DNA of 63,990 nt, filler included, from Thermoplasmatota archaeon (GTDB lineage: Archaea; Thermoplasmatota; E2; JACPAO01; JAHFTW01): the NCBI GenBank assembly GCA_041623215.1. It is 7 parts of 7 records of this genome, joined end to end, with 100 filler letters (N's around TTAATTAATTAA, not from the genome) between each part and the next. Parts side by side here need not be neighbours in the genome. Positions count along the whole stretch, not along the records: positions 30,509 to 39,980 come from JBFJXH010000066.1; 6 more parts are not named here. One strand, given 5' to 3'. Below the pieces are notes generated by a model that searched no databases, had not been told where the DNA came from, and saw only the letters and a program-made list of their open reading frames with translations. The position numbers and the translations under genes were made by a program. Below, piece by piece: positions 792 through 42,618 of this stretch (position 1 is its first letter; each line of letters starts with the position of its first letter).

Positions 792-2615
792 ATGCGTGCA
801 TGGCTGATGGCCACGACCTTGACTGTAGTGGCGCTTTCTGGTTGCCTCATTGACGACCCGCCCGCCGACGAGCGATACGGCCACTTGGCAGCGCCCGGAG
901 CCGAAATTACGGACCAAGGCAACGTGCGCATCTTGTCGTGGGCAGGTGAAGTGGGGCCAGGGGCATCCGCGCCGCTACTCGGAGGATTGCCGGGCTCGGA
1001 TGAGGCGGGTGTCCAGTTTGAGGCCGATGCCAGCGTCGGCTATGTATCGGTGGCCGCTACTGCCGATGACCCGGTGGTGGTCCTCCTCCGGGACCCGGAC
1101 GGCCGCATCGCTTGCGGCACGCCTGGGGGTCCGGGTTCACCCATGCCCTGCACGGCACCCATTGATCCAACTGCGGGTGGCGGCACCTACAATGTAACCA
1201 TCCGGCACGGCGGCGCGGGCGAGGCGACTGCGTTTCGCCTCCTCGTTGAACTGCATCCGCCGGAGCACGTCCGTTATGGCGAGGTGCACGGACTGTCCGA
1301 CAACCTGACCTTCCACGTGAGTGACACCGGCATTGCGGGTGGCGAGCCAACCGTTGGCGTCACCAGTGACGGCACCATCTTCGTCGTTGAAGGGACGACC
1401 GTCTTGCGCAGCCAGGACGATGGCACCTCGTGGCAGGATGTCACGCCAGACGGCCACGAATTGACCTTGGACCCGATGCTGTATGTGGACCCGTGGACCG
1501 ACCGAGTCTATGTCAACCACCTCTACGTCGCGTGCTCCTACCTAGCATGGAGTGACGACCTGGGCGAAACATGGGTTACCAATCCCGCAGCCTGTGGTGA
1601 TACCGCCATTGACCACCAAAAACTGGCCGTCGGGGCAAGCCCCTTGCCCATTGCGCCCTTCTTTGACGGGACCGTCTACTTCACGTTCAATTCCTTCGCC
1701 CTCCTCGTCGATGGCGCCAGCCACATCGTCGCCAGCCGCAGCCTAGATGGTGGAATCACCTGGAGCAATGCCATCGCTTTGACTGAAGGCGACCTCGGCA
1801 CCTACCGGACCGGTGGACCGGTCGCGGCCGACCAGGATGGCCACGCCTACATTCCCTTCTACCTGTGTGATGGCGGCTTCGGCGTCACGGCAAGCAGCGA
1901 CTACGGCGTCACCTGGACGCCCACTCGTGCAGGGGGCCAGAGCGGCGCCTGCGAGGGGATTGACCCCGGCCTTGCCATTGACACCGCTGGTAACGTCTAC
2001 GGCGCGTATTGGGGGCCGACCGGCATTCGGGTGGTCGCCAGCAGCGACCACGGCGGCAGCTGGATTGATGTGGGGCCGCGCCAAGGCATGGATGCAGATG
2101 CAGGCCCCGTGAGTGCCGAGGGATTGCGCTCCAGCGTCCTCGTTGATGCCATCGCTGGCGATGAAGGCCGAGTGGCTGTTGCCTACCTCGCCACCGCCGA
2201 TTCGGCAAACGGGCCCAACCGCGCGCACGGATGGAGCACGTGGCACCTCTATGTCAGTGTCAGCGACGACGCATTGGCTGCGCTGCCGACGTGGACCACC
2301 ACGCGCGTCACGCCGGATGACGACCCCGTCCAAATCGGTACCATTTGCACCGGCGGCATCGGCTGCTTTGGCGGCAATCGTAACCTGCTTGATTTCATCG
2401 ACATCCAACTCACGCCCGACGGCCGCATTGTGGTTGCCTACACGGACGGCTGCCTGGATGATTGCCAAGCGTCCCCCCTGCCTCAGACCAGCCGGGACCG
2501 GCGCGGCGTCGTTGCGGTGCAACGCGATGGCCCGACGCTCTTTGAGGCGGGGGCACCATGGAGCACGGCTGGCGACGACGGCGCGGCAGCAGCGGTCTTC
2601 CAGATTGCCTCGTAG
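792..2615 (+). CDS. Lipoprotein with sialidase-like BNR/Asp-box beta-propeller
   Basis: Lipobox-like VVALSGC; Asp-box repeats SQDDGTSW, SDDLGETW, SLDGGITW, SSDYGVTW, SSDHGGSW. Start placed at the ATG of MRAWLM. Confidence 0.8.
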   Translation: MRAWLMATTLTVVALSGCLIDDPPADERYGHLAAPGAEITDQGNVRILSWAGEVGPGASAPLLGGLPGSDEAGVQFEADASVGYVSVAATADDPVVVLLRDPDGRIACGTPGGPGSPMPCTAPIDPTAGGGTYNVTIRHGGAGEATAFRLLVELHPPEHVRYGEVHGLSDNLTFHVSDTGIAGGEPTVGVTSDGTIFVVEGTTVLRSQDDGTSWQDVTPDGHELTLDPMLYVDPWTDRVYVNHLYVACSYLAWSDDLGETWVTNPAACGDTAIDHQKLAVGASPLPIAPFFDGTVYFTFNSFALLVDGASHIVASRSLDGGITWSNAIALTEGDLGTYRTGGPVAADQDGHAYIPFYLCDGGFGVTASSDYGVTWTPTRAGGQSGACEGIDPGLAIDTAGNVYGAYWGPTGIRVVASSDHGGSWIDVGPRQGMDADAGPVSAEGLRSSVLVDAIAGDEGRVAVAYLATADSANGPNRAHGWSTWHLYVSVSDDALAALPTWTTTRVTPDDDPVQIGTICTGGIGCFGGNRNLLDFIDIQLTPDGRIVVAYTDGCLDDCQASPLPQTSRDRRGVVAVQRDGPTLFEAGAPWSTAGDDGAAAAVFQIAS

Positions 2616-2642
2616 GCCGCATCGCCGCTAAGCAGCGGGTCG

Positions 2643-3320
2643 TCAGGACCGACGGCCGGGTGGCCGAATCGATTCGTCGAGCCACGCCTCGTGCTCCTTG
2701 GGCGCCGGGGGGACAAGCGAACGAACCGTTTCTGACGACTCCACCTCGTGGGCGTTTCGCCACGAACCCAACGCCTTGTCAAAAACCTGGCTCGTAACGC
2801 CAAACCAGTATTGCTCGTTCTTGTAGTGGTGCAGCAAGTGGCTGCGTTTCAAAGGCCGGAGCCAAGGCATCCAGGGGCGAACCCCGGGCCGGTGGGATGT
2901 CAGGTGCACGTATTCGTAATGGACCAGACCAACGAAATTGCCGGTGCTGAAGGCCGCCGCCGCAGGCAGCCCGGCTAGCGCCCATGCGAGTAGAAAATAC
3001 ACGATGCCGAACGTGACGCTGATGCGAGGGTCGTTGAAGAGAACATCCAGTTCGCCAGGGTCTTCGTGATGCAGGATGTGCTGACGGCTCGTAACTCGGC
3101 CAAGGCGTTTGTTCACCAACCCATGAAAGGCAAAGCGGTGCACCAAGTATTCATTCGGGTAAAACCAAAGAAAACCAATTGTGGCCGTAAGAGTCGTATG
3201 CCACCACATTTCCAGTGGCCACCCCATGGCGGCTCCCACCATGACGAAGAGGCCGGCCCACTTGGGTAGCATGCGTCGATGACGAAGCCAAGGCCACAGC
3301 GAGGTGCCCGCCTGAACCAT
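2643..3320 (-). CDS. Fatty acid hydroxylase / sterol desaturase family di-iron membrane enzyme
   Basis: Histidine boxes HRFAFH, HILHH, HLTSH, HLLHH, plus FGVTS..FD and transmembrane segments. Confidence 0.85.
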   Translation of the reverse strand: MVQAGTSLWPWLRHRRMLPKWAGLFVMVGAAMGWPLEMWWHTTLTATIGFLWFYPNEYLVHRFAFHGLVNKRLGRVTSRQHILHHEDPGELDVLFNDPRISVTFGIVYFLLAWALAGLPAAAAFSTGNFVGLVHYEYVHLTSHRPGVRPWMPWLRPLKRSHLLHHYKNEQYWFGVTSQVFDKALGSWRNAHEVESSETVRSLVPPAPKEHEAWLDESIRPPGRRS

Positions 3321-5570: not shown

Positions 5571-6764
5571 GTGGCGTTCACCGTCCGCGATGCGGTCCAC
5601 GGCTCAATCCATGTGCCTGACTGGATGGAGCCCATCATTGATTCACCGACGTTGCAGCGCCTGCGACGCGTGCGCCAACTTGGCACCGGCCACCTTGTTT
5701 ACCCTGGCGCGCATCACAATCGATTCGAGCACAGCCTTGGTGCCAGCCATGTCGCCGGCCGCTTGGCCGAATTACTGGGGTTTGACGACGATGATACGCG
5801 GCTGGTCAGGGCGGCCGCGCTGTTGCACGACGTTGGGCATGGGCCCTTCAGTCATGCGTTCGAGGAATTGACGAAGCAGCACGGCCACCGGCATGAGGAG
5901 GCCACCGTTGATTTGGTGCAATGGGGTCCGTTGGCAGATCCCCTTCGCCGCGGCGGCGTGGACCCCGTCGCCGTGGCGGAGGCAGTCCAGGGACAAGGTC
6001 GGTTGGGTCCCTTGGTCGCCGGCAGTCTTGATGCCGACCGCATGGACTACCTGGTGCGCGATGCGCACTACACGGGCGTCCGTTCCGCTGCCGACCCAGA
6101 CCGCATCTGCGGCGTTCTGCAATTGGATGATGACCATGGCGTGGTCCTTCGGGAAGCCGGCGTCGTGGCCGCAGAGGCCTTCCTGGCGACGCGGTTCTTG
6201 ATGTACCCCGCGGTGTACCTCCATCACACCGTACGTGCCAGCGAAACCATGCTGCAAGCCGCCATCGAAGCGCTGCTGGCCGACCCCGGCAGTGGGGGCC
6301 AGGAGCGCCCAGCGTTGCAGACCCTAGCGCGCGAGACTGACGATGGTCTGGAACACCTGCTGCGGCAAGGTCCGCCCGTCGCGGCCGAGCTCATGGAACG
6401 CCTCGATGCACGGCGCCTCTACAAGCGCGCGCACGAAGGGCGCTGGGCCGACTTTGAAGCGCTGGCGCAGCCAGCCTTGGCGACGGATGGCGCTGCCCGC
6501 CGGCAGGTTGCCGCAGAGATTGCGGGTGCCGCCGGTTTGGCCCCGCACGAGGTAATTCTAGACGTTCCGCACGCCCCGAAGTACCGCGAGCTTGACTTGC
6601 GCGTGCTGCGCCGCGACGGGGACGTGGTACCTTTGGTTGATGCCAGCCGCTTGGTGCGGGCGCTGCACGAGGCTCGCATGGACCACTGGCGGTTCTGGGT
6701 CTTTGCACCCGCCAGGCAGACCGACGCCGTGGCAACGGCCGCCGCCGACGTGCTGGCGTCCTAG
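5571..6764 (+). CDS. HD-domain phosphohydrolase (dNTP triphosphohydrolase/SAMHD1-like family)
   Basis: RDAVHG, QRLRRVRQLG, RFEHSLG, ALLHDVGHGPFSH, LDADRMDYLVRD, VYLHH. Confidence 0.9.
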   Translation: MAFTVRDAVHGSIHVPDWMEPIIDSPTLQRLRRVRQLGTGHLVYPGAHHNRFEHSLGASHVAGRLAELLGFDDDDTRLVRAAALLHDVGHGPFSHAFEELTKQHGHRHEEATVDLVQWGPLADPLRRGGVDPVAVAEAVQGQGRLGPLVAGSLDADRMDYLVRDAHYTGVRSAADPDRICGVLQLDDDHGVVLREAGVVAAEAFLATRFLMYPAVYLHHTVRASETMLQAAIEALLADPGSGGQERPALQTLARETDDGLEHLLRQGPPVAAELMERLDARRLYKRAHEGRWADFEALAQPALATDGAARRQVAAEIAGAAGLAPHEVILDVPHAPKYRELDLRVLRRDGDVVPLVDASRLVRALHEARMDHWRFWVFAPARQTDAVATAAADVLAS

Positions 6765-37133: not shown

Positions 37134-38486
37134 ATGCAGTTCAACGACCTGCCCATAGCCGACGGCACGAAAGATGCCGTCGCCGCCATGGGCTATTTCG
37201 ACGCCACACCCATCCAGCGTGATGCAATCCCCCATTTGCTCAAGGGCCGGGACCTTATTGGTCGGGCCCAAACCGGCACCGGCAAGACGGCCGCCTTTGG
37301 CGTGCCCCTCATTGACAAGCTTCGCGACGTTCGTGGCGACGGCATTCGTGGCCTCGTGCTGTGCCCGACGCGCGAATTGGCCTTACAAGTAACAGAGGTG
37401 CTAACAGCCGTGGCCGCGGGCAGCCGCGTCCGCGTTGTGCCGGTGTATGGAGGCGCGGGCTTTGACAAACAAGAGAAAGGCTTGGCCCAGCGCGCTCCGC
37501 TTGTGGTGGTTGCATGTCCCGGACGCTTGCTGGACCTCATGGGTCGCGGCGTGGCGGACATTGCCACGACGGAGTTCTTCATTCTCGACGAAGCGGATCG
37601 CATGTTGGACATGGGTTTCATCCACGACATCAAGCGCATCGAAAAGGAGCTGCCCCACCACCGCCAAACGGCGCTATTCTCGGCCACGTTTGATGGCCCG
37701 ATTCGTCGCCTAGCGCATGATTTCCTACAGGACCCCGTGACGGTTGAAGTGGAAGACACCATTACAACTGACTTGGTGGATGATTATCACATCAAGGTGG
37801 AAAAGTCGCTCAAGAAGCAGCTTCTGCTTACACTCATGGCACGGGAGGAACCCTCCAAGGCCATCATCTTCACCAAGATGAAGCACCAGGCGAAGCGCCT
37901 GGCGGGCGACTTGAACAAACACGGCTGGGCCGCCGTCGCCTTACAGGGCAACATGACCCAAGGCCAGCGCGAACGCGCCATGGATGCGTTTCGCGACGGT
38001 CGGGCCCGTGTCATGGTCGCAACCGATGTTGCCGCGCGCGGCCTCGACGTTCCCGACATCAGTCACGTCATCAATTATGACTTGCCCACCGAGGTGGAAA
38101 ACTACGTCCACCGGGTTGGACGCACCGGCCGCAATGGCCAGACTGGCCGGGCCCACAGCTTCGTGCAATCGGATGAGCACGCGCACTTTCGAGACATCAA
38201 GCGCTTGGCGGGAAACATTCCGGGCGATCCGGTTGAACCTGAGTCAAATGCCGCGCGCGGTCCCGACGCTCCCCTGATTCTTGTTGCCCCCCAGCAGCAG
38301 CGACAGCCGAGTGGCTCGACTGCCCGTCGCAGTCGGCGCCGCGCCGGTAAGGCCGGCCAGGGAGGCGGTGGCCAGCAAGGCAGCCATGGCGGTCGTCAGC
38401 AAGGCGTTTCCAGCGGTAATCGCCAGGGACGTGGCGGACGACGCGGCCGTGGTGGCCGCGGGGGCGGCTACCGGTCCACAGGCTGA
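37134..38486 (+). CDS. DEAD-box RNA helicase
   Basis: Q motif TPIQ, AQTGTGKT, PTRELA, DEAD, SAT, ARGLD, HRVGRTGR; Arg/Gly-rich tail. Confidence 0.96.
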   Translation: MQFNDLPIADGTKDAVAAMGYFDATPIQRDAIPHLLKGRDLIGRAQTGTGKTAAFGVPLIDKLRDVRGDGIRGLVLCPTRELALQVTEVLTAVAAGSRVRVVPVYGGAGFDKQEKGLAQRAPLVVVACPGRLLDLMGRGVADIATTEFFILDEADRMLDMGFIHDIKRIEKELPHHRQTALFSATFDGPIRRLAHDFLQDPVTVEVEDTITTDLVDDYHIKVEKSLKKQLLLTLMAREEPSKAIIFTKMKHQAKRLAGDLNKHGWAAVALQGNMTQGQRERAMDAFRDGRARVMVATDVAARGLDVPDISHVINYDLPTEVENYVHRVGRTGRNGQTGRAHSFVQSDEHAHFRDIKRLAGNIPGDPVEPESNAARGPDAPLILVAPQQQRQPSGSTARRSRRRAGKAGQGGGGQQGSHGGRQQGVSSGNRQGRGGRRGRGGRGGGYRSTG

Positions 38487-38531
38487 CCCATCTCAGAGCG
38501 GCCGTCTGTCCAAGCCACCGTGCATTATTCC

Positions 38532-38537
38532 TTTATA
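38532..38537 (+). promoter_or_regulatory. Archaeal TATA box of the proteasome beta-alpha operon
   Basis: TTTATA 24-29 nt upstream of the ATG at 38561, consistent with a leaderless transcript. Confidence 0.7.
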
Positions 38538-38560
38538 CAAGTGCTAACTTACTCTGTCCG

Positions 38561-39175
38561 ATGACTACCACCGTGGGCCTTCGCACACCGGAAGGCATCG
38601 TCTTGGCGACGGACCGCCGCGCCACCATGGGCTACTTCGTCGCCGACAAAGACGTCGTCAAGATTGAGCCCCTTGGAGACGATGCAGCAATCACCATCGC
38701 CGGCAGCGTTGCCCAAGCACAAGCGTACGCACACAGCCTGCGCATGAACATTGACTACACCAAGGCCCGGCGAGGCTGGAGCCTTTCCCCGAATGAGCTG
38801 GCCAAATTGGCCGCTTACAACATCCAACGCGCGGGCGGCGTGTATGGCCAATTCATCCTGGCCACGCGCGACGGCACCAACACCCATCTTTGGGACGTAG
38901 GTGGCGACGGCTCACTGATTATCAAGAAGGATTACACGGTAACTGGCAGCGGAACGGGACCCGCCATCGGCGTGCTCGAATCGCAAGACTGGTCCACGAT
39001 TACCACCCTCGAAGCGGCGCGAGAAGCGGCGCGAAAGGCCATCCAGGCGAGTACGCAGCGCGACGCCGGTAGTGGCAACGGTCTGGTGGTTTACACGCTT
39101 CCCAACGAGGGCGAAGCAGAACTCAAGACCTACACGTTCAAGCAATCCGTCGAAGAAGATGAGGTGACGGCATGA
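38561..39175 (+). CDS. psmB: 20S proteasome beta-type subunit, no propeptide
   Basis: M-TTTVG; after Met removal Thr1, Asp17 and Lys33 fall at the canonical positions; AGSVA, TGSG, RDAGSG motifs present. Confidence 0.9.
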   Translation: MTTTVGLRTPEGIVLATDRRATMGYFVADKDVVKIEPLGDDAAITIAGSVAQAQAYAHSLRMNIDYTKARRGWSLSPNELAKLAAYNIQRAGGVYGQFILATRDGTNTHLWDVGGDGSLIIKKDYTVTGSGTGPAIGVLESQDWSTITTLEAAREAARKAIQASTQRDAGSGNGLVVYTLPNEGEAELKTYTFKQSVEEDEVTA

Positions 39176-39834
39176 AGCCCCACGTCGATACCACCTACCT
39201 GCACTTCGATGAATCCGGCTCCGTTCCGGCCATCAAGTACGCCCGCATTGCGCTTGCCAATGGCTTGCCCATCATTGCGGCCCACGATGGTAAGTCGGTC
39301 GCCGTCGCCACCGTCAACCGCGAAGGCAACATGCTGGCGACCGGCGCGGACAAGCTCATTCATGTCAGTCTCGACTGCGTGGTGCTGGTTACAGGCCACG
39401 GCGGCGACACCAACCAGGTCCGCCAGGTACTACGTGACTTGGCCGTGAACCACAAGTTCGTTTTTGGCTCTGAAATCAGCCCCAAAGAAATCAGCCTCGC
39501 GCTCTCGGACTACCTGCATGAGCTTGGCATGAGCTATCGGCGTCCCCTGGGCGTCGGCATCATCGTAGCTGGCTTCGACCGCCACGGAACCGAGGCCGCC
39601 ATCTACCACTGTGATGTGGATGGCAACGCCCTCGAACGCCGTGGCATTGCTCTGGGCAAGTCCGCCTCCGAAGCGGAACACGCTATCCAGCAGGGCCTCA
39701 AAGAAGGCCAAGACCTAGAGGCCATGCTCAAGGCGGCAGCCGACGCCACTATCCGTGCAATGCAGGAGTCCAGTGTTGACTTGAAGGACGCCACTTTCCG
39801 TACGGACCTGGAAGTCCTCCAGGCTCGCAACTAG
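39172..39834 (+). CDS. psmA: Divergent 20S proteasome alpha-type subunit
   Basis: F..SG....KYA..A..NG, DKL, TGHGGD, RPLGVGIIVAGFD, DVDG, ALGK align to the alpha fold; ATGA overlap with the beta gene. Confidence 0.82.
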   Translation: MKPHVDTTYLHFDESGSVPAIKYARIALANGLPIIAAHDGKSVAVATVNREGNMLATGADKLIHVSLDCVVLVTGHGGDTNQVRQVLRDLAVNHKFVFGSEISPKEISLALSDYLHELGMSYRRPLGVGIIVAGFDRHGTEAAIYHCDVDGNALERRGIALGKSASEAEHAIQQGLKEGQDLEAMLKAAADATIRAMQESSVDLKDATFRTDLEVLQARN

Positions 39835-39895: not shown

Positions 39896-39980
39896 ATGGC
39901 GATGCAGGATGGCATCGGAAGGACCGGCTACCGCGTCATTGCGGATGTTTTCATGGCCGTAGGGCTATTGGGATTGGGCA
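39896..39980 (+). CDS. Start of a hypothetical membrane/secreted protein (truncated)
   Basis: ATG followed by a hydrophobic stretch running into the linker. Confidence 0.3.
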
Positions 39981-40080
39981 NNNNNNNNNNNNNNNNNNNN
40001 NNNNNNNNNNNNNNNNNNNNNNNNTTAATTAATTAANNNNNNNNNNNNNNNNNNNNNNNNNNNNNNNNNNNNNNNNNNNN
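39981..40080. other. Artificial contig linker
   Basis: N-run/TTAATTAATTAA/N-run. Confidence 0.98.
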
Positions 40081-42618
40081 CAGGACATCGGCATCGCCGT
40101 CACCAACGCCACCGGAAACGGCGTGTGGCAGTGGAGCAGCGACAACGGAACGTCATGGATGAACATCACGGGTGCAACGGATGCCAACAGCATCCTGGTC
40201 CCCCACGACGCGTTGCTGCGTTACGTCCCCGATGGCGTCAACGGCGAAGTGGCCAAGGTCGTGGTGCGGGCGTGGGATGGAACGCATCCGACGCCGGTGC
40301 AAGTGGCTGCTGGCGACCGGCATTCGTGTGCCGTGCTCTCGGATGGCACGGTGACGTGCTGGGGCAGTGATGCCTATGGTCAAGGGTCGCCACCCACAGG
40401 CGTCAACACCACAGTAAACGGCGGCACCACCGCCTTCAGCGCCGCCGCCCACGACCTCACAATCGACGTCACGGAACTGGAAGACGCCCCCATCTTCGGC
40501 GACCTTGGGGATGGCGGCGTCACAGGCTTCGAGCACACAACCCTGACGTTCAACGTCACCGCGACCGACCCCGAAGGCCTCGCCGTTACCTACGCCCTGA
40601 CGGATGCGGCTGGCACCAACGCCACCATCAACGAAACCACGGGCGTCCTGTCCCTCTGGGGAAGTGAAGCGCTTGGCGGCATGAACCTCACCTTCACGGT
40701 GACGGCCAACGCCACCGGCGCCGACCACACCGCGACCACGGTATGGTTCAATGTCACCGAATTCGATGACCTGCCCATCTTTGACCCCGCGGCCGGTGTC
40801 ACCGGGCCCGAACACACCCTGCTCGGTTTGCAAGTGGGCGCCACCGACCCCGACGGCGTGCCGGTTTGGTTCAGCATCAGCGACGACGGTGGCAGTGGTG
40901 CCACCATCGACAACGTGACCGGCATGGTCACCTTGAATGCCAACGAAACCCACGGCGGCAACAACTACACCGTCACCGTGCAAGCCAATGGCACCGCCGG
41001 AGGAGCCGACGCGGCGTTCACGACCATTTGGTTCAATGTCCTTGAAGTGGACGACATGCCCGACTTCAGCGACCTTGGAGCCGGCGGCGTATCGGGCCTG
41101 GAGCACACGTTGCTGACATTCAACGTCACCGCAACGGACCCCGAAGAGCTCCCCGTCACCTACACCCTCACCAATGCCAACGGCACAAACGCCACCATCA
41201 ACGAGACCACGGGGGTTCTGTCCCTGTGGGGCAGCGAGGCCCTTGGCGGCATGAACCTCACCCTGGAAGTGACCGTCAATGCCACCGGCGCCGACCACGC
41301 TACCGTGGATGTTTGGTTCAACGTCATCGAAGTGAACGACTTCGTGGAACTCACCATTGACCCGCTGCCAGGCAACCACACGCCGCCAGAATTGTTTGAA
41401 GATCCGCAGCTCAACGATACAGTGCTCCTGTACGCGTTTGCGTTCGAGCACCAGGAATTCGGCTTCGTCCTGAACGGAACCGATCCGGAAGGTGCAACCG
41501 TGACCTACTGCTTCGTCCATGATGATTCGCCTGATGCACCCTTCTCGGTGAGCGCATGGCTCACAGCCGAACGCGATGTGCCATCAGATGCAACCATCAA
41601 TGGCGTCCCCGCATGGACGCTCAACACGACCACCGGCGAATTCCGCTGGACGCCCACAGAATCGGACGGCATGAACATGACCGACCCCGAAGGAGGCTCT
41701 GAGCCATACCCCGGGCTGCACTTCTTCTGGCTGTGCGCCGACGATGGGGAAACGCAAACACTCCAATCCTTTGCGTTGCTCATCTACGAAACGGACGACG
41801 CCCCCGTCTTCGACACCATGCCGTTCCCGGTGACCGAACGGGTCCGCCGCACCATCAATGAAACCGTGGTCGCGAGCGACCCCGAAGGTGGCCTGGTCAC
41901 CTACAGCCTGCGAAATGGCACCGAGGGAGGGGTTCCCGACGGCCTCACCATCAACGAAACCACGGGCCAAGTGACCTGGGAAATTGGCAGTCGTCAGCGA
42001 GGCACATTCATCTTCGACATTTGTGCCCGCGACGCGCCGGCGCCCGCCGGACTCGAGACCTGCCACACGACCCACATCCTGACCCGGAGTTCGGGCGGCG
42101 GAGGCGGCGGTGGAACGCCGCCCCCGACCGGCGGCGGAGGTGGCACGTTGCCGCCGGAAGATGGCACGGGCGGAGGCGGTCAAACCGGCGACCGCCTGGG
42201 CCTTGACGACATCACCGACAGCGACGGCGACGGCCTCGATGACGTGGACGAAGTAGCCTTGGGCACCGACCCATTGGACCCCGACACGGACGATGATGGG
42301 CTCGTCGACGGCGATGAAGGCCTCTACCGCGCCGACCCCCTGAATCCTGACACCGACGGCGATGGCCTAACGGACGGCGACGAGGTGCACCTGCACGGCA
42401 CGCGTCCGGATCTGTCTGATACGGATGGCGACGGCTTTGCAGACGGCTTCGAAGTCGCCCAAGGCCGCGCGCCCGTAGACGAGGAGCAGCCCGTCGATGA
42501 CGCAGAATCCAAGGGTGGCAAGGGCTTCCTGTGGGTCTTGCTGCTCCTGGTGCTCGTGGCGGCGGTTATTGGCGGCCTCATCGCCTGGCGAAAGCATCAG
42601 GAAAGCAGGGAAGAGTAG
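40081..42618 (+). CDS. Surface adhesin-like glycoprotein with cadherin/Ig repeats, Ca-binding DTDGDG repeats and C-terminal TM anchor (5'-truncated)
   Basis: Repeated ATDPEG units, many N-x-T sequons, poly-Gly linker, DSDGDGL/DTDGDGL repeats, hydrophobic helix followed by RKH. Confidence 0.85.
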   Translation, partial: QDIGIAVTNATGNGVWQWSSDNGTSWMNITGATDANSILVPHDALLRYVPDGVNGEVAKVVVRAWDGTHPTPVQVAAGDRHSCAVLSDGTVTCWGSDAYGQGSPPTGVNTTVNGGTTAFSAAAHDLTIDVTELEDAPIFGDLGDGGVTGFEHTTLTFNVTATDPEGLAVTYALTDAAGTNATINETTGVLSLWGSEALGGMNLTFTVTANATGADHTATTVWFNVTEFDDLPIFDPAAGVTGPEHTLLGLQVGATDPDGVPVWFSISDDGGSGATIDNVTGMVTLNANETHGGNNYTVTVQANGTAGGADAAFTTIWFNVLEVDDMPDFSDLGAGGVSGLEHTLLTFNVTATDPEELPVTYTLTNANGTNATINETTGVLSLWGSEALGGMNLTLEVTVNATGADHATVDVWFNVIEVNDFVELTIDPLPGNHTPPELFEDPQLNDTVLLYAFAFEHQEFGFVLNGTDPEGATVTYCFVHDDSPDAPFSVSAWLTAERDVPSDATINGVPAWTLNTTTGEFRWTPTESDGMNMTDPEGGSEPYPGLHFFWLCADDGETQTLQSFALLIYETDDAPVFDTMPFPVTERVRRTINETVVASDPEGGLVTYSLRNGTEGGVPDGLTINETTGQVTWEIGSRQRGTFIFDICARDAPAPAGLETCHTTHILTRSSGGGGGGGTPPPTGGGGGTLPPEDGTGGGGQTGDRLGLDDITDSDGDGLDDVDEVALGTDPLDPDTDDDGLVDGDEGLYRADPLNPDTDGDGLTDGDEVHLHGTRPDLSDTDGDGFADGFEVAQGRAPVDEEQPVDDAESKGGKGFLWVLLLLVLVAAVIGGLIAWRKHQESREE

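Follow-up and report, generated by a model that had tools for sequence, protein, structure and literature searches.

The archaeal 20S proteasome is used as a simple model of the eukaryotic machine, with one alpha subunit, one beta subunit, a beta propeptide and a YDR gate that is opened by HbYX tails. Here we describe a second pair of proteasome genes, named beta' and alpha', in a 63,990-base stretch of Thermoplasmatota DNA (hereafter the window), which consists of several contigs joined via runs of N. Contig C66, which carries the pair, belongs to a metagenome-assembled genome (MAG) of 1.94 Mb with a completeness of 88%. While remaining under strong selection, the pair departs from the simple model: beta' lacks a propeptide, alpha' has lost two of the four gate-cluster residues and has a new invariant motif, and the promoter is tied to chaperone and unfoldase genes. 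This second proteasome gene pair is real, conserved and specific to one family. From its sequence features, we consider it probable that beta' and alpha' form a conserved, translationally coupled operon for a second, highly diverged pair of subunits, likely a separate stress-induced 20S-type protease in which beta' would be activated by the removal of Met.

Several described systems resemble this pair in part. In the excerpted text of a survey of proteasome homologues (Fuchs et al., 2021; PMC8665760), propeptides occur in most beta and HslV subunits and in no other homologue, propeptide-less subunits are inactive until assembled, and archaeal propeptides have no known function. The same excerpts of this survey by Fuchs, Alva and Lupas cover 22 single-gene families and contain no such pair, although the sequences could sit within its Psm clusters, and full-text literature searches found no description of the beta'/alpha' pair. 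The bacterial proteins HslV, Anbu and BPH carry Thr1 directly after the initiator Met, and beta' shares with them a predicted activation by removal of Met1. In contrast to beta', with its overlapping alpha-type partner gene, these proteins are single-subunit homo-oligomers without an alpha ring.

The actinobacterial prcB-prcA operon has the same beta-then-alpha order, with PrcB carrying a long propeptide. The first-pass annotation of this DNA had pointed to the prcBA arrangement, and the likeness is one of layout only, because both proteins score far better on archaeal than on bacterial models; against the bacterial 20S models, beta' reached 41.1 bits (cut-off 191.9) and alpha' 23.5 bits (cut-off 139), both below. 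With the canonical archaeal 20S subunits PsmA and PsmB, the pair has in common the PF00227 domain, the full catalytic set in beta', and the alpha fold, H0 helix and pocket lysine in alpha'. However, both proteins fall below the archaeal equivalog cut-offs (beta' 146.6 bits versus 224 for the NCBIfam PsmB model TIGR03634; alpha' 49.1 versus 287 for TIGR03633 and 53 versus 219 for NF003075), beta' lacks a propeptide, and the two genes form one operon with a heat-shock-type element, unlike psmA and psmB, which lie apart in this genome.

The gene pair and its subunits

A genome-wide search recovered four PF00227 genes, namely canonical psmA with its YDR gate (contig C4), canonical psmB (contig C83) and the beta'/alpha' pair. 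The canonical genes are on separate contigs, and because the genome has these ordinary, unlinked psmA and psmB genes, beta' and alpha' constitute a second pair, as the first-pass annotation had proposed. One PAN (513 bits, C-terminus GLYA), one Cdc48 (1081 bits, C-terminus MEFL) and two PAC2-family genes are also encoded. The features of the pair, in window coordinates, are as follows.

38530 to 38557, plus strand: promoter, the TATA box TTTATA and then the element CAAGTGCTAAC (from reading of the sequence, the A/T peak in relatives and matrix ranks)
38532 to 38537, plus strand: TATA box TTTATA, spanning -29 to -24 from the beta' ATG, with 23 bases between box and ATG
38561 to 39175, plus strand: beta' gene, for a 204-residue catalytic proteasome beta-type subunit without propeptide, Met being followed directly by TTTVG (from the open reading frame (ORF), profile matches and alignments)
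38561 to 38563, plus strand: beta' start codon ATG
39161 to 39167, plus strand: Shine-Dalgarno-like GAGGTGA within the 3' end of beta', 4 nucleotides (nt) before the alpha' start
39172 to 39175, plus strand: ATGA overlap of the beta' stop and the alpha' start
39172 to 39834, plus strand: alpha' gene, for a 220-residue alpha-type subunit with an H0 helix and a rewritten N-terminus (from the ORF, profiles and a structure model)

The first-pass annotation had described a TATA box 24-29 nt ahead of the ATG, an ATG directly before TTTVG and an ATGA overlap between the beta and alpha genes, and all three are present at the positions listed above; the beta' ORF begins MTTTVG, and no other ATG, GTG or TTG stands between this start and the in-frame stop upstream. 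TTTATA occurs as a single copy in the window when both strands are counted, where shuffled sequences lead to an expectation of 2.1, so its count alone carries no meaning and it is the position that matters. Across 28 distinct upstream regions from relatives, the A/T fraction is 0.68-0.96 at -31 to -26 versus about 0.35 elsewhere. Archaeal transcripts usually start near the ATG when an A/T box lies at such a distance, and the spacing between TATA box and ATG suggests that the beta' transcript is leaderless or nearly so. Of 28 distinct loci, 22 share the 4-nt overlap of the alpha' start with the beta' stop, four have the start between 1 base before and 58 bases after the stop, and two were unmatched by the junction pattern. 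In 27 of the 28 distinct junctions, alpha' is preceded by a GGAGG/GAGGT-type motif. A leader-poor first gene followed by a Shine-Dalgarno-led second gene would fit coupled production of beta' and alpha' in matched amounts.

The beta' protein matched Pfam PF00227 with 107.1 bits (gathering cut-off 22.4) and in the search of the genome scored 106.9 bits versus 177 for PsmB, to which it is 30% identical. Its best solved relatives are archaeal beta subunits, those of Archaeoglobus fulgidus (6he5/1j2q) at an E-value of about 1e-22; the best solved matches of the pair as a whole also include Methanocaldococcus 3h4p and Thermoplasma 1pma. In public annotation, relatives of beta' are named 'proteasome subunit beta', that is, they are handled as ordinary beta subunits. 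Alignment to PsmB identified Thr1, Asp17, Lys33, Gly47, Ser129 (in TGSG), Asp166 and Ser169 (in RDAGSG), which in precursor numbering are T2, D18, K34, G48, S130, D168 and S171, and all are invariant in 41 beta' sequences of the family, so that the intact Thr1/Asp17/Lys33, TGSG and RDAGSG reported by the first-pass annotation are a property of the whole set. Given the invariant catalytic residues and a confident structure model (predicted local distance difference test, pLDDT, 83), beta' looks like a competent protease.

The absence of a propeptide was also evident across relatives. All 28 distinct beta' loci have Met immediately before TTT(V/I/L)G (12 of 12 in a first check), the reading frame upstream is unconserved, and three loci have a stop 5-8 codons upstream, in agreement with the earlier view that there is no room for a propeptide. 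Canonical PsmB sequences from the same and related genomes, by comparison, had propeptides of roughly 5-21 residues in 24 of 24 cases examined, most ending in Gly-Thr; in the window genome, PsmB has the 15-residue propeptide MNATTDGAPPQAKTG, ending AKTG, followed by TTTLG. For beta', methionine aminopeptidase would expose Thr1, as in HslV.

The alpha' ORF begins MKPHVDTTYLHFDESGSVPAIKYA, departing from the conserved YDR-type motif as had been noted from the window alone. The PF00227 domain is present (79.4 bits), and the best solved relatives are eukaryotic and archaeal alpha subunits (E-values of 2.5e-11 and weaker). The structure model (pLDDT 77) has the alpha-specific H0 helix at residues 20-30, and Foldseek placed 20S alpha subunits at the top of its matches to the model (template modelling score about 0.7). 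There is no Thr1 nucleophile, the GTT of canonical alpha being aligned to GLP.

In archaeal alpha subunits, the open-gate cluster described in the literature consists of Tyr8, Asp9, Pro17 and Tyr26, and Lys66 is the pocket lysine that receives activator C-termini. Profile alignment of PsmA to alpha' showed that two of these four gate residues are kept, Asp9 (D6) and Tyr26 (Y23; Y, F or N across the family), and that two are replaced, Tyr8 by Val or Ile (V/I5) and Pro17 by Glu (E14). The position of Arg10 is variable, Gly19 corresponds to G16, and Lys66 is kept as K61, which aligns to the SIEK lysine. Far from being variable, the N-terminus is among the most conserved stretches of alpha', with the motif V5 D6 .. 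Y9 L10 H11 F12 D13 E14. G16; residues D6, Y9, L10, H11, F12, D13, E14, G16, P19-K22, A24-I26 and K61 are invariant in 40 alpha' sequences. This invariance argues that the N-terminus is not degenerate, and the simplest reading is that alpha' has a different but defined gate, so that the remodelled N-terminus would gate the pore differently. The first-pass annotation had suggested altered gating or regulator binding. The replaced Tyr8 and Pro17 and the new invariant N-terminus favor the first part; as to the second, docking of regulators is not obviously lost, because the docking lysine is kept.

We also observed that alpha' is unusually rich in invariant His and Cys residues without counterpart in canonical alpha, namely H11, H76, H94, H116 and C147 (in the motifs GHGGD and HCDVDGN), with H146 and H170 nearly invariant.

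Another possible arrangement is that beta' forms an HslV-like double ring on its own, with alpha' acting as a cap, chaperone or adaptor. The Thr1 of beta' does follow directly after Met, as in HslV, and the N-terminus of alpha' is remodelled. However, the score of 146.6 bits on the archaeal beta model compares with only 19-20 bits on the HslV models, well below their cut-offs (137-158), alpha' retains the whole alpha fold including the H0 helix, and the conserved coupling of the two genes suggests matched production. We therefore regard a beta'-only particle as very improbable.

A further alternative is that alpha' and/or beta' are replacement subunits which under stress join the canonical PsmA/PsmB rings, leading to mixed 20S subtypes. 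There are precedents for mixed subtypes in the alpha1/alpha2 subunits of Haloferax, the beta paralogues of Sulfolobales and the vertebrate immunoproteasome. Some other Thermoplasmatota families carry a mildly diverged second alpha (YDQAST...), which means that paralogue use exists in the phylum; the docking lysine is kept in alpha', and since a single PAN and a single Cdc48 were found, at a genome completeness of 88%, regulators would be shared. Against such replacement, the paralogues come for both rings and are always adjacent and translationally coupled, alpha' shares only about 19% identity with the PsmA of the same genome over 191 profile columns (24% in a BLASTP alignment of 63 residues), a distance well outside that of known interchangeable paralogues, and propeptide-bearing and propeptide-less beta subunits would mature differently in one ring. 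Replacement is thus an unlikely explanation in our assessment. On the preferred reading of a separate particle, alpha'7 and beta'7 rings would assemble with each other and not with PsmA/PsmB, and the particle may work with Cdc48, PAN or both, whose C-termini are MEFL and GLYA, respectively.

Distribution, conservation and origin

Sampling 24 other genomes of the same Genome Taxonomy Database (GTDB) family recovered alpha' in 23, at 64-76% identity; in the single genome without a match, beta' lies at a contig edge and alpha' is cut off. In a phylum-wide sample of 400 genomes, alpha' was present in all 18 genomes of the family and in none of 382 genomes from 49 other Thermoplasmatota families (E<=1e-12). 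The 25 loci in GTDB species genomes all belong to uncultured MAGs, with titles naming Thermoplasmatota or Thermoplasmata (22), Halobacteriales (2) or 'bacterium' (1). A collection of 5.8 billion proteins yielded 110 relatives of alpha', all at least 60% identical, and where these are named at all they are called 'hypothetical', '20S proteasome alpha/beta subunit' or 'proteasome subunit alpha 6'. A full HMMER pass of alpha' over 1.84 billion representatives gave one match at E<=1e-30, the next being 28% identical. This match, P0231, is 50% identical to alpha' and is a singleton on a 934-base contig, with no locus context; it hints at an unsampled sister lineage that may have the system. P0231 is the sole alpha' relative outside the tight family; its N-terminus reads MLPGNDPAYTHFDENG, the GHGGD motif is kept and the His-Cys of HCDVDGN is absent.

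Within the family, the median identity to the window genome of beta' (75%, n=21) and alpha' (72%, n=21) is similar to that of PsmA (76%, n=17) and PsmB (73%, n=9). The pair is under ordinary purifying selection, as strong as that on the canonical subunits, and since it is as conserved as PsmA/PsmB within the family, its divergence from the canonical subunits predates the family radiation. Conservation in relatives, which the first-pass annotation had put forward as a check, was found throughout: the pair is present in all family genomes searched, with the Met-TTT start, the catalytic residues and the rewritten alpha N-terminus kept.

In a phylogenetic tree of 89 rows (canonical beta subunits from Thermoplasmatota only; seven short or fragmentary representative rows dropped), alpha', together with P0231, and beta' each formed a fully supported clade on a long stem (2.82 for alpha', 1.92 for beta'). 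Both clades are separate from the groups formed by Thermoplasmatota PsmA (support 93) and PsmB (support 91). Neither subunit therefore lies within the ordinary PsmA/PsmB clades of the phylum in the free tree, in line with the separate set suggested earlier, but approximately unbiased (AU) tests did not reject a family-specific duplication, whether alpha' was joined to the PsmA of the family (p=0.106) or beta' to its PsmB (p=0.36). A duplication at the stem of the family, an older paralogue and transfer are all possible as the origin of the pair.

Beta-alpha pairs of other archaea, found on metagenome contigs (loci L183-L204), show a comparable combination of features, with a propeptide-less beta in which Met directly precedes TTIVG and an altered gate, GRxPYFYGPEG, in alpha. 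Their subunits are much closer to the canonical ones, however, when full-length ORFs are compared: the alphas scored 106-121 bits against PsmA versus 38-58 against alpha', and the betas 124-140 bits against PsmB versus 87-109 against beta'. P0238, a representative of these pairs, is 27% identical to alpha' over 175 columns and 31% identical to canonical alpha over 214. In the tree, beta' groups weakly with this type of beta (SH-like approximate likelihood ratio test, SH-aLRT, 82), a join flagged for long branches.

A more conventional extra subunit was observed in other Thermoplasmatota families, where four loci (L103, L104, L106 and L107, in genomes G026, G028, G031 and G037) hold a second alpha paralogue that is 44-57% identical to the PsmA of the window genome and in which YDR has become YDQ, YDV or YDG.

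A promoter element shared with chaperone genes

What is new here is a rare promoter element that beta' shares with the genes for Cdc48, DnaK, DnaJ, Hsp20 and a helix-turn-helix (HTH) regulator. Its consensus, common to all of these promoters, is TTRTA(G/C)AAG-N3-CYRAC. A whole-genome scan with a first matrix, derived from the sequences upstream of beta' at 27 other loci, ranked the promoters of the regulator and of Cdc48 as the top two, with the genome's own beta' promoter third. The regulator is an HTH-XRE protein (NCBIfam PRK04140, 317 bits), whose own promoter carries the element. A second matrix, of 28 bases, was trained only on 25 Cdc48 promoters from 24 other genomes and run over both strands, about 3.9 million positions. 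Its top five matches were Cdc48 (34.1 bits), the regulator (21.4), DnaK (20.2), Hsp20 (16.8) and beta' (16.2), with DnaJ ninth; canonical psmA, psmB and PAN were absent from its 17 matches above 8 bits. Besides that of the pair, the element sites in genome G000, with the two associated genes placed by coordinates, are as follows.

C4, 14421 to 14448, plus strand: element in the regulator promoter
C89, about 2398 to 2425, minus strand: element in the Cdc48 promoter
C170, 1270 to 1297, plus strand: element in the DnaK promoter
C172, minus strand: element in the Hsp20 promoter; downstream gene at 2146 to 2757, minus strand
C76, minus strand: element in the DnaJ promoter; downstream gene at 5607 to 6755, minus strand

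The core of the element, TTRTAGAAG, occurs 16 times in the 1.94 Mb. The sites that precede genes are those of the HTH regulator, Cdc48, DnaK, DnaJ and Hsp20, the remainder being intragenic or without a convincing gene. Across relatives, the core was found before Cdc48 in 26 of 26 upstream sequences (25 genomes), before the regulator in 27 of 29 (counted by eye) and, in a relaxed form, before beta' in 15 of 22 genomes. In each of two genomes, beta' and Cdc48 have promoters with identical variable bases in the element, reading GAAGTTCTGAC in G005 and GAAGTCCTGAC in G014.

The element looks like the mark of an undescribed heat-shock regulon of this Thermoplasmatota family. A described parallel is the Phr/HSR1 regulon of Pyrococcus furiosus, where, in the excerpted text of the source, the repressor Phr controls Hsp20 and the AAA+ ATPase VAT/Cdc48 through a site before each gene, and the ordinary proteasome genes are not heat-induced (PMC10746257). 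The system described here differs in that a dedicated second proteasome pair carries the element and in that the candidate regulator is the HTH-XRE protein of the PRK04140 type, not Phr. Because the element otherwise precedes Cdc48, DnaK, DnaJ, Hsp20 and the regulator, the beta'/alpha' pair is likely part of a proteotoxic-stress regulon, its induction being suggested by analogy with Phr. A repressor, possibly the PRK04140-type regulator, would hold the operon off until proteotoxic stress occurs.

The element might instead be the strong basal promoter type of this lineage, in which case the pair would be constitutive and without stress control. The element includes a TATA box, the sequence 3' of GAAG varies among regulator promoters, and 7 of 22 genomes have no strict core ahead of beta', all of which speaks for such a promoter. 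Against a basal type stand the mere 16 occurrences of the core in the genome and the narrow set of genes that follow it, the absence of psmA, psmB and PAN from the matrix matches above 8 bits, and the matching variable bases in G005 and G014. We judge the pair rather unlikely to be constitutive for these reasons, and stress control remains the preferred reading.

In its fullest form, this reading is of a dedicated heat-shock proteasome, with rings of its own, repressed together with Cdc48, Hsp70, Hsp40 and Hsp20, requiring no autolysis and having a new gate, and perhaps a branch of an old, undescribed 'second proteasome' lineage that is found in several archaeal phyla. We put this forward tentatively, as a combination that falls somewhat short of an even chance. 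Should the pair indeed form a separate particle, prokaryotes would have a counterpart of the inducible proteasome subtypes, and the purpose of the propeptide and of the gate cluster would be put to a natural test.

A number of observations weigh against a separate, stress-induced particle. The element of beta' in the window genome is a variant, with TATAC in place of TATAG, and the strict core is missing in the 7 genomes mentioned above. Part of the matrix score derives from the TATA box, which is rare in a GC-rich genome (77 TATA-like hexamers), and the remaining matches among the top nine of the second matrix lie within the alanyl-tRNA synthetase gene, at a site with no convincing gene after it, and inside a PAC2 frame. 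Long branches affect where both proteins are placed in the trees. Mixed particles are known from archaea with additional alpha or beta paralogues, and a free Thr1 could be N-acetylated and hence inactivated, as seen in work on yeast. Finally, the sequencing runs that contain this stretch are four DNA runs of one marine metagenome study, with no RNA run among them.

Neighbouring genes

The genes next to the pair in the window are the following.

37134 to 38486, plus strand: DEAD-box helicase (DEAD and Helicase_C domains) with a long Gly/Arg-rich C-terminal tail, directly upstream of the pair
39897 to 39981, plus strand: start of a gene for a membrane and zinc-ribbon protein (MAMQDGIGRTGYRVIADVF...), truncated by the contig end; a conserved neighbour that need not belong to the system

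No winged helix-turn-helix gene lies directly upstream of the pair in the window, that position being taken by the helicase, and most related loci have a different upstream neighbour. In 22 of 25 related loci (L027-L051), alpha' is followed on the same strand by a membrane protein bearing a zinc ribbon at its C-terminus, and in 21 an M61 (glycyl) aminopeptidase with a PDZ domain is found 3' of the pair, also on the same strand. Genes often found upstream encode a DHH/DHH-CID/DHHA1 protein (13 of the 25 loci) and a small membrane protein (9 loci). In a sister family, two genomes have the M61 peptidase and none of the other neighbours within 8 kb of it, and three genomes of another family gave no M61 match. 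Synteny within a single family is weak evidence of function, and this one is not kept in the sister family. In the window, the contig ends 85 bases into the zinc-ribbon gene, and a TATA-like TTCATAT was noticed about 30 bases before its ATG.

The contig end is followed by an artificial join, in which a linker (TTAATTAATTAA; 39981 to 40081) stands between two N runs. Because contigs were joined artificially here, features on opposite sides of the join are not genomic neighbours. A separate observation from the window is an 831-residue predicted surface protein (40123 to 42618, plus strand) with many copies of a repeated domain of roughly 100 residues in which N-x-T/S sites abound, together with a Gly-rich linker, DTDGDG-type repeats resembling calcium-binding motifs and a C-terminal membrane anchor.

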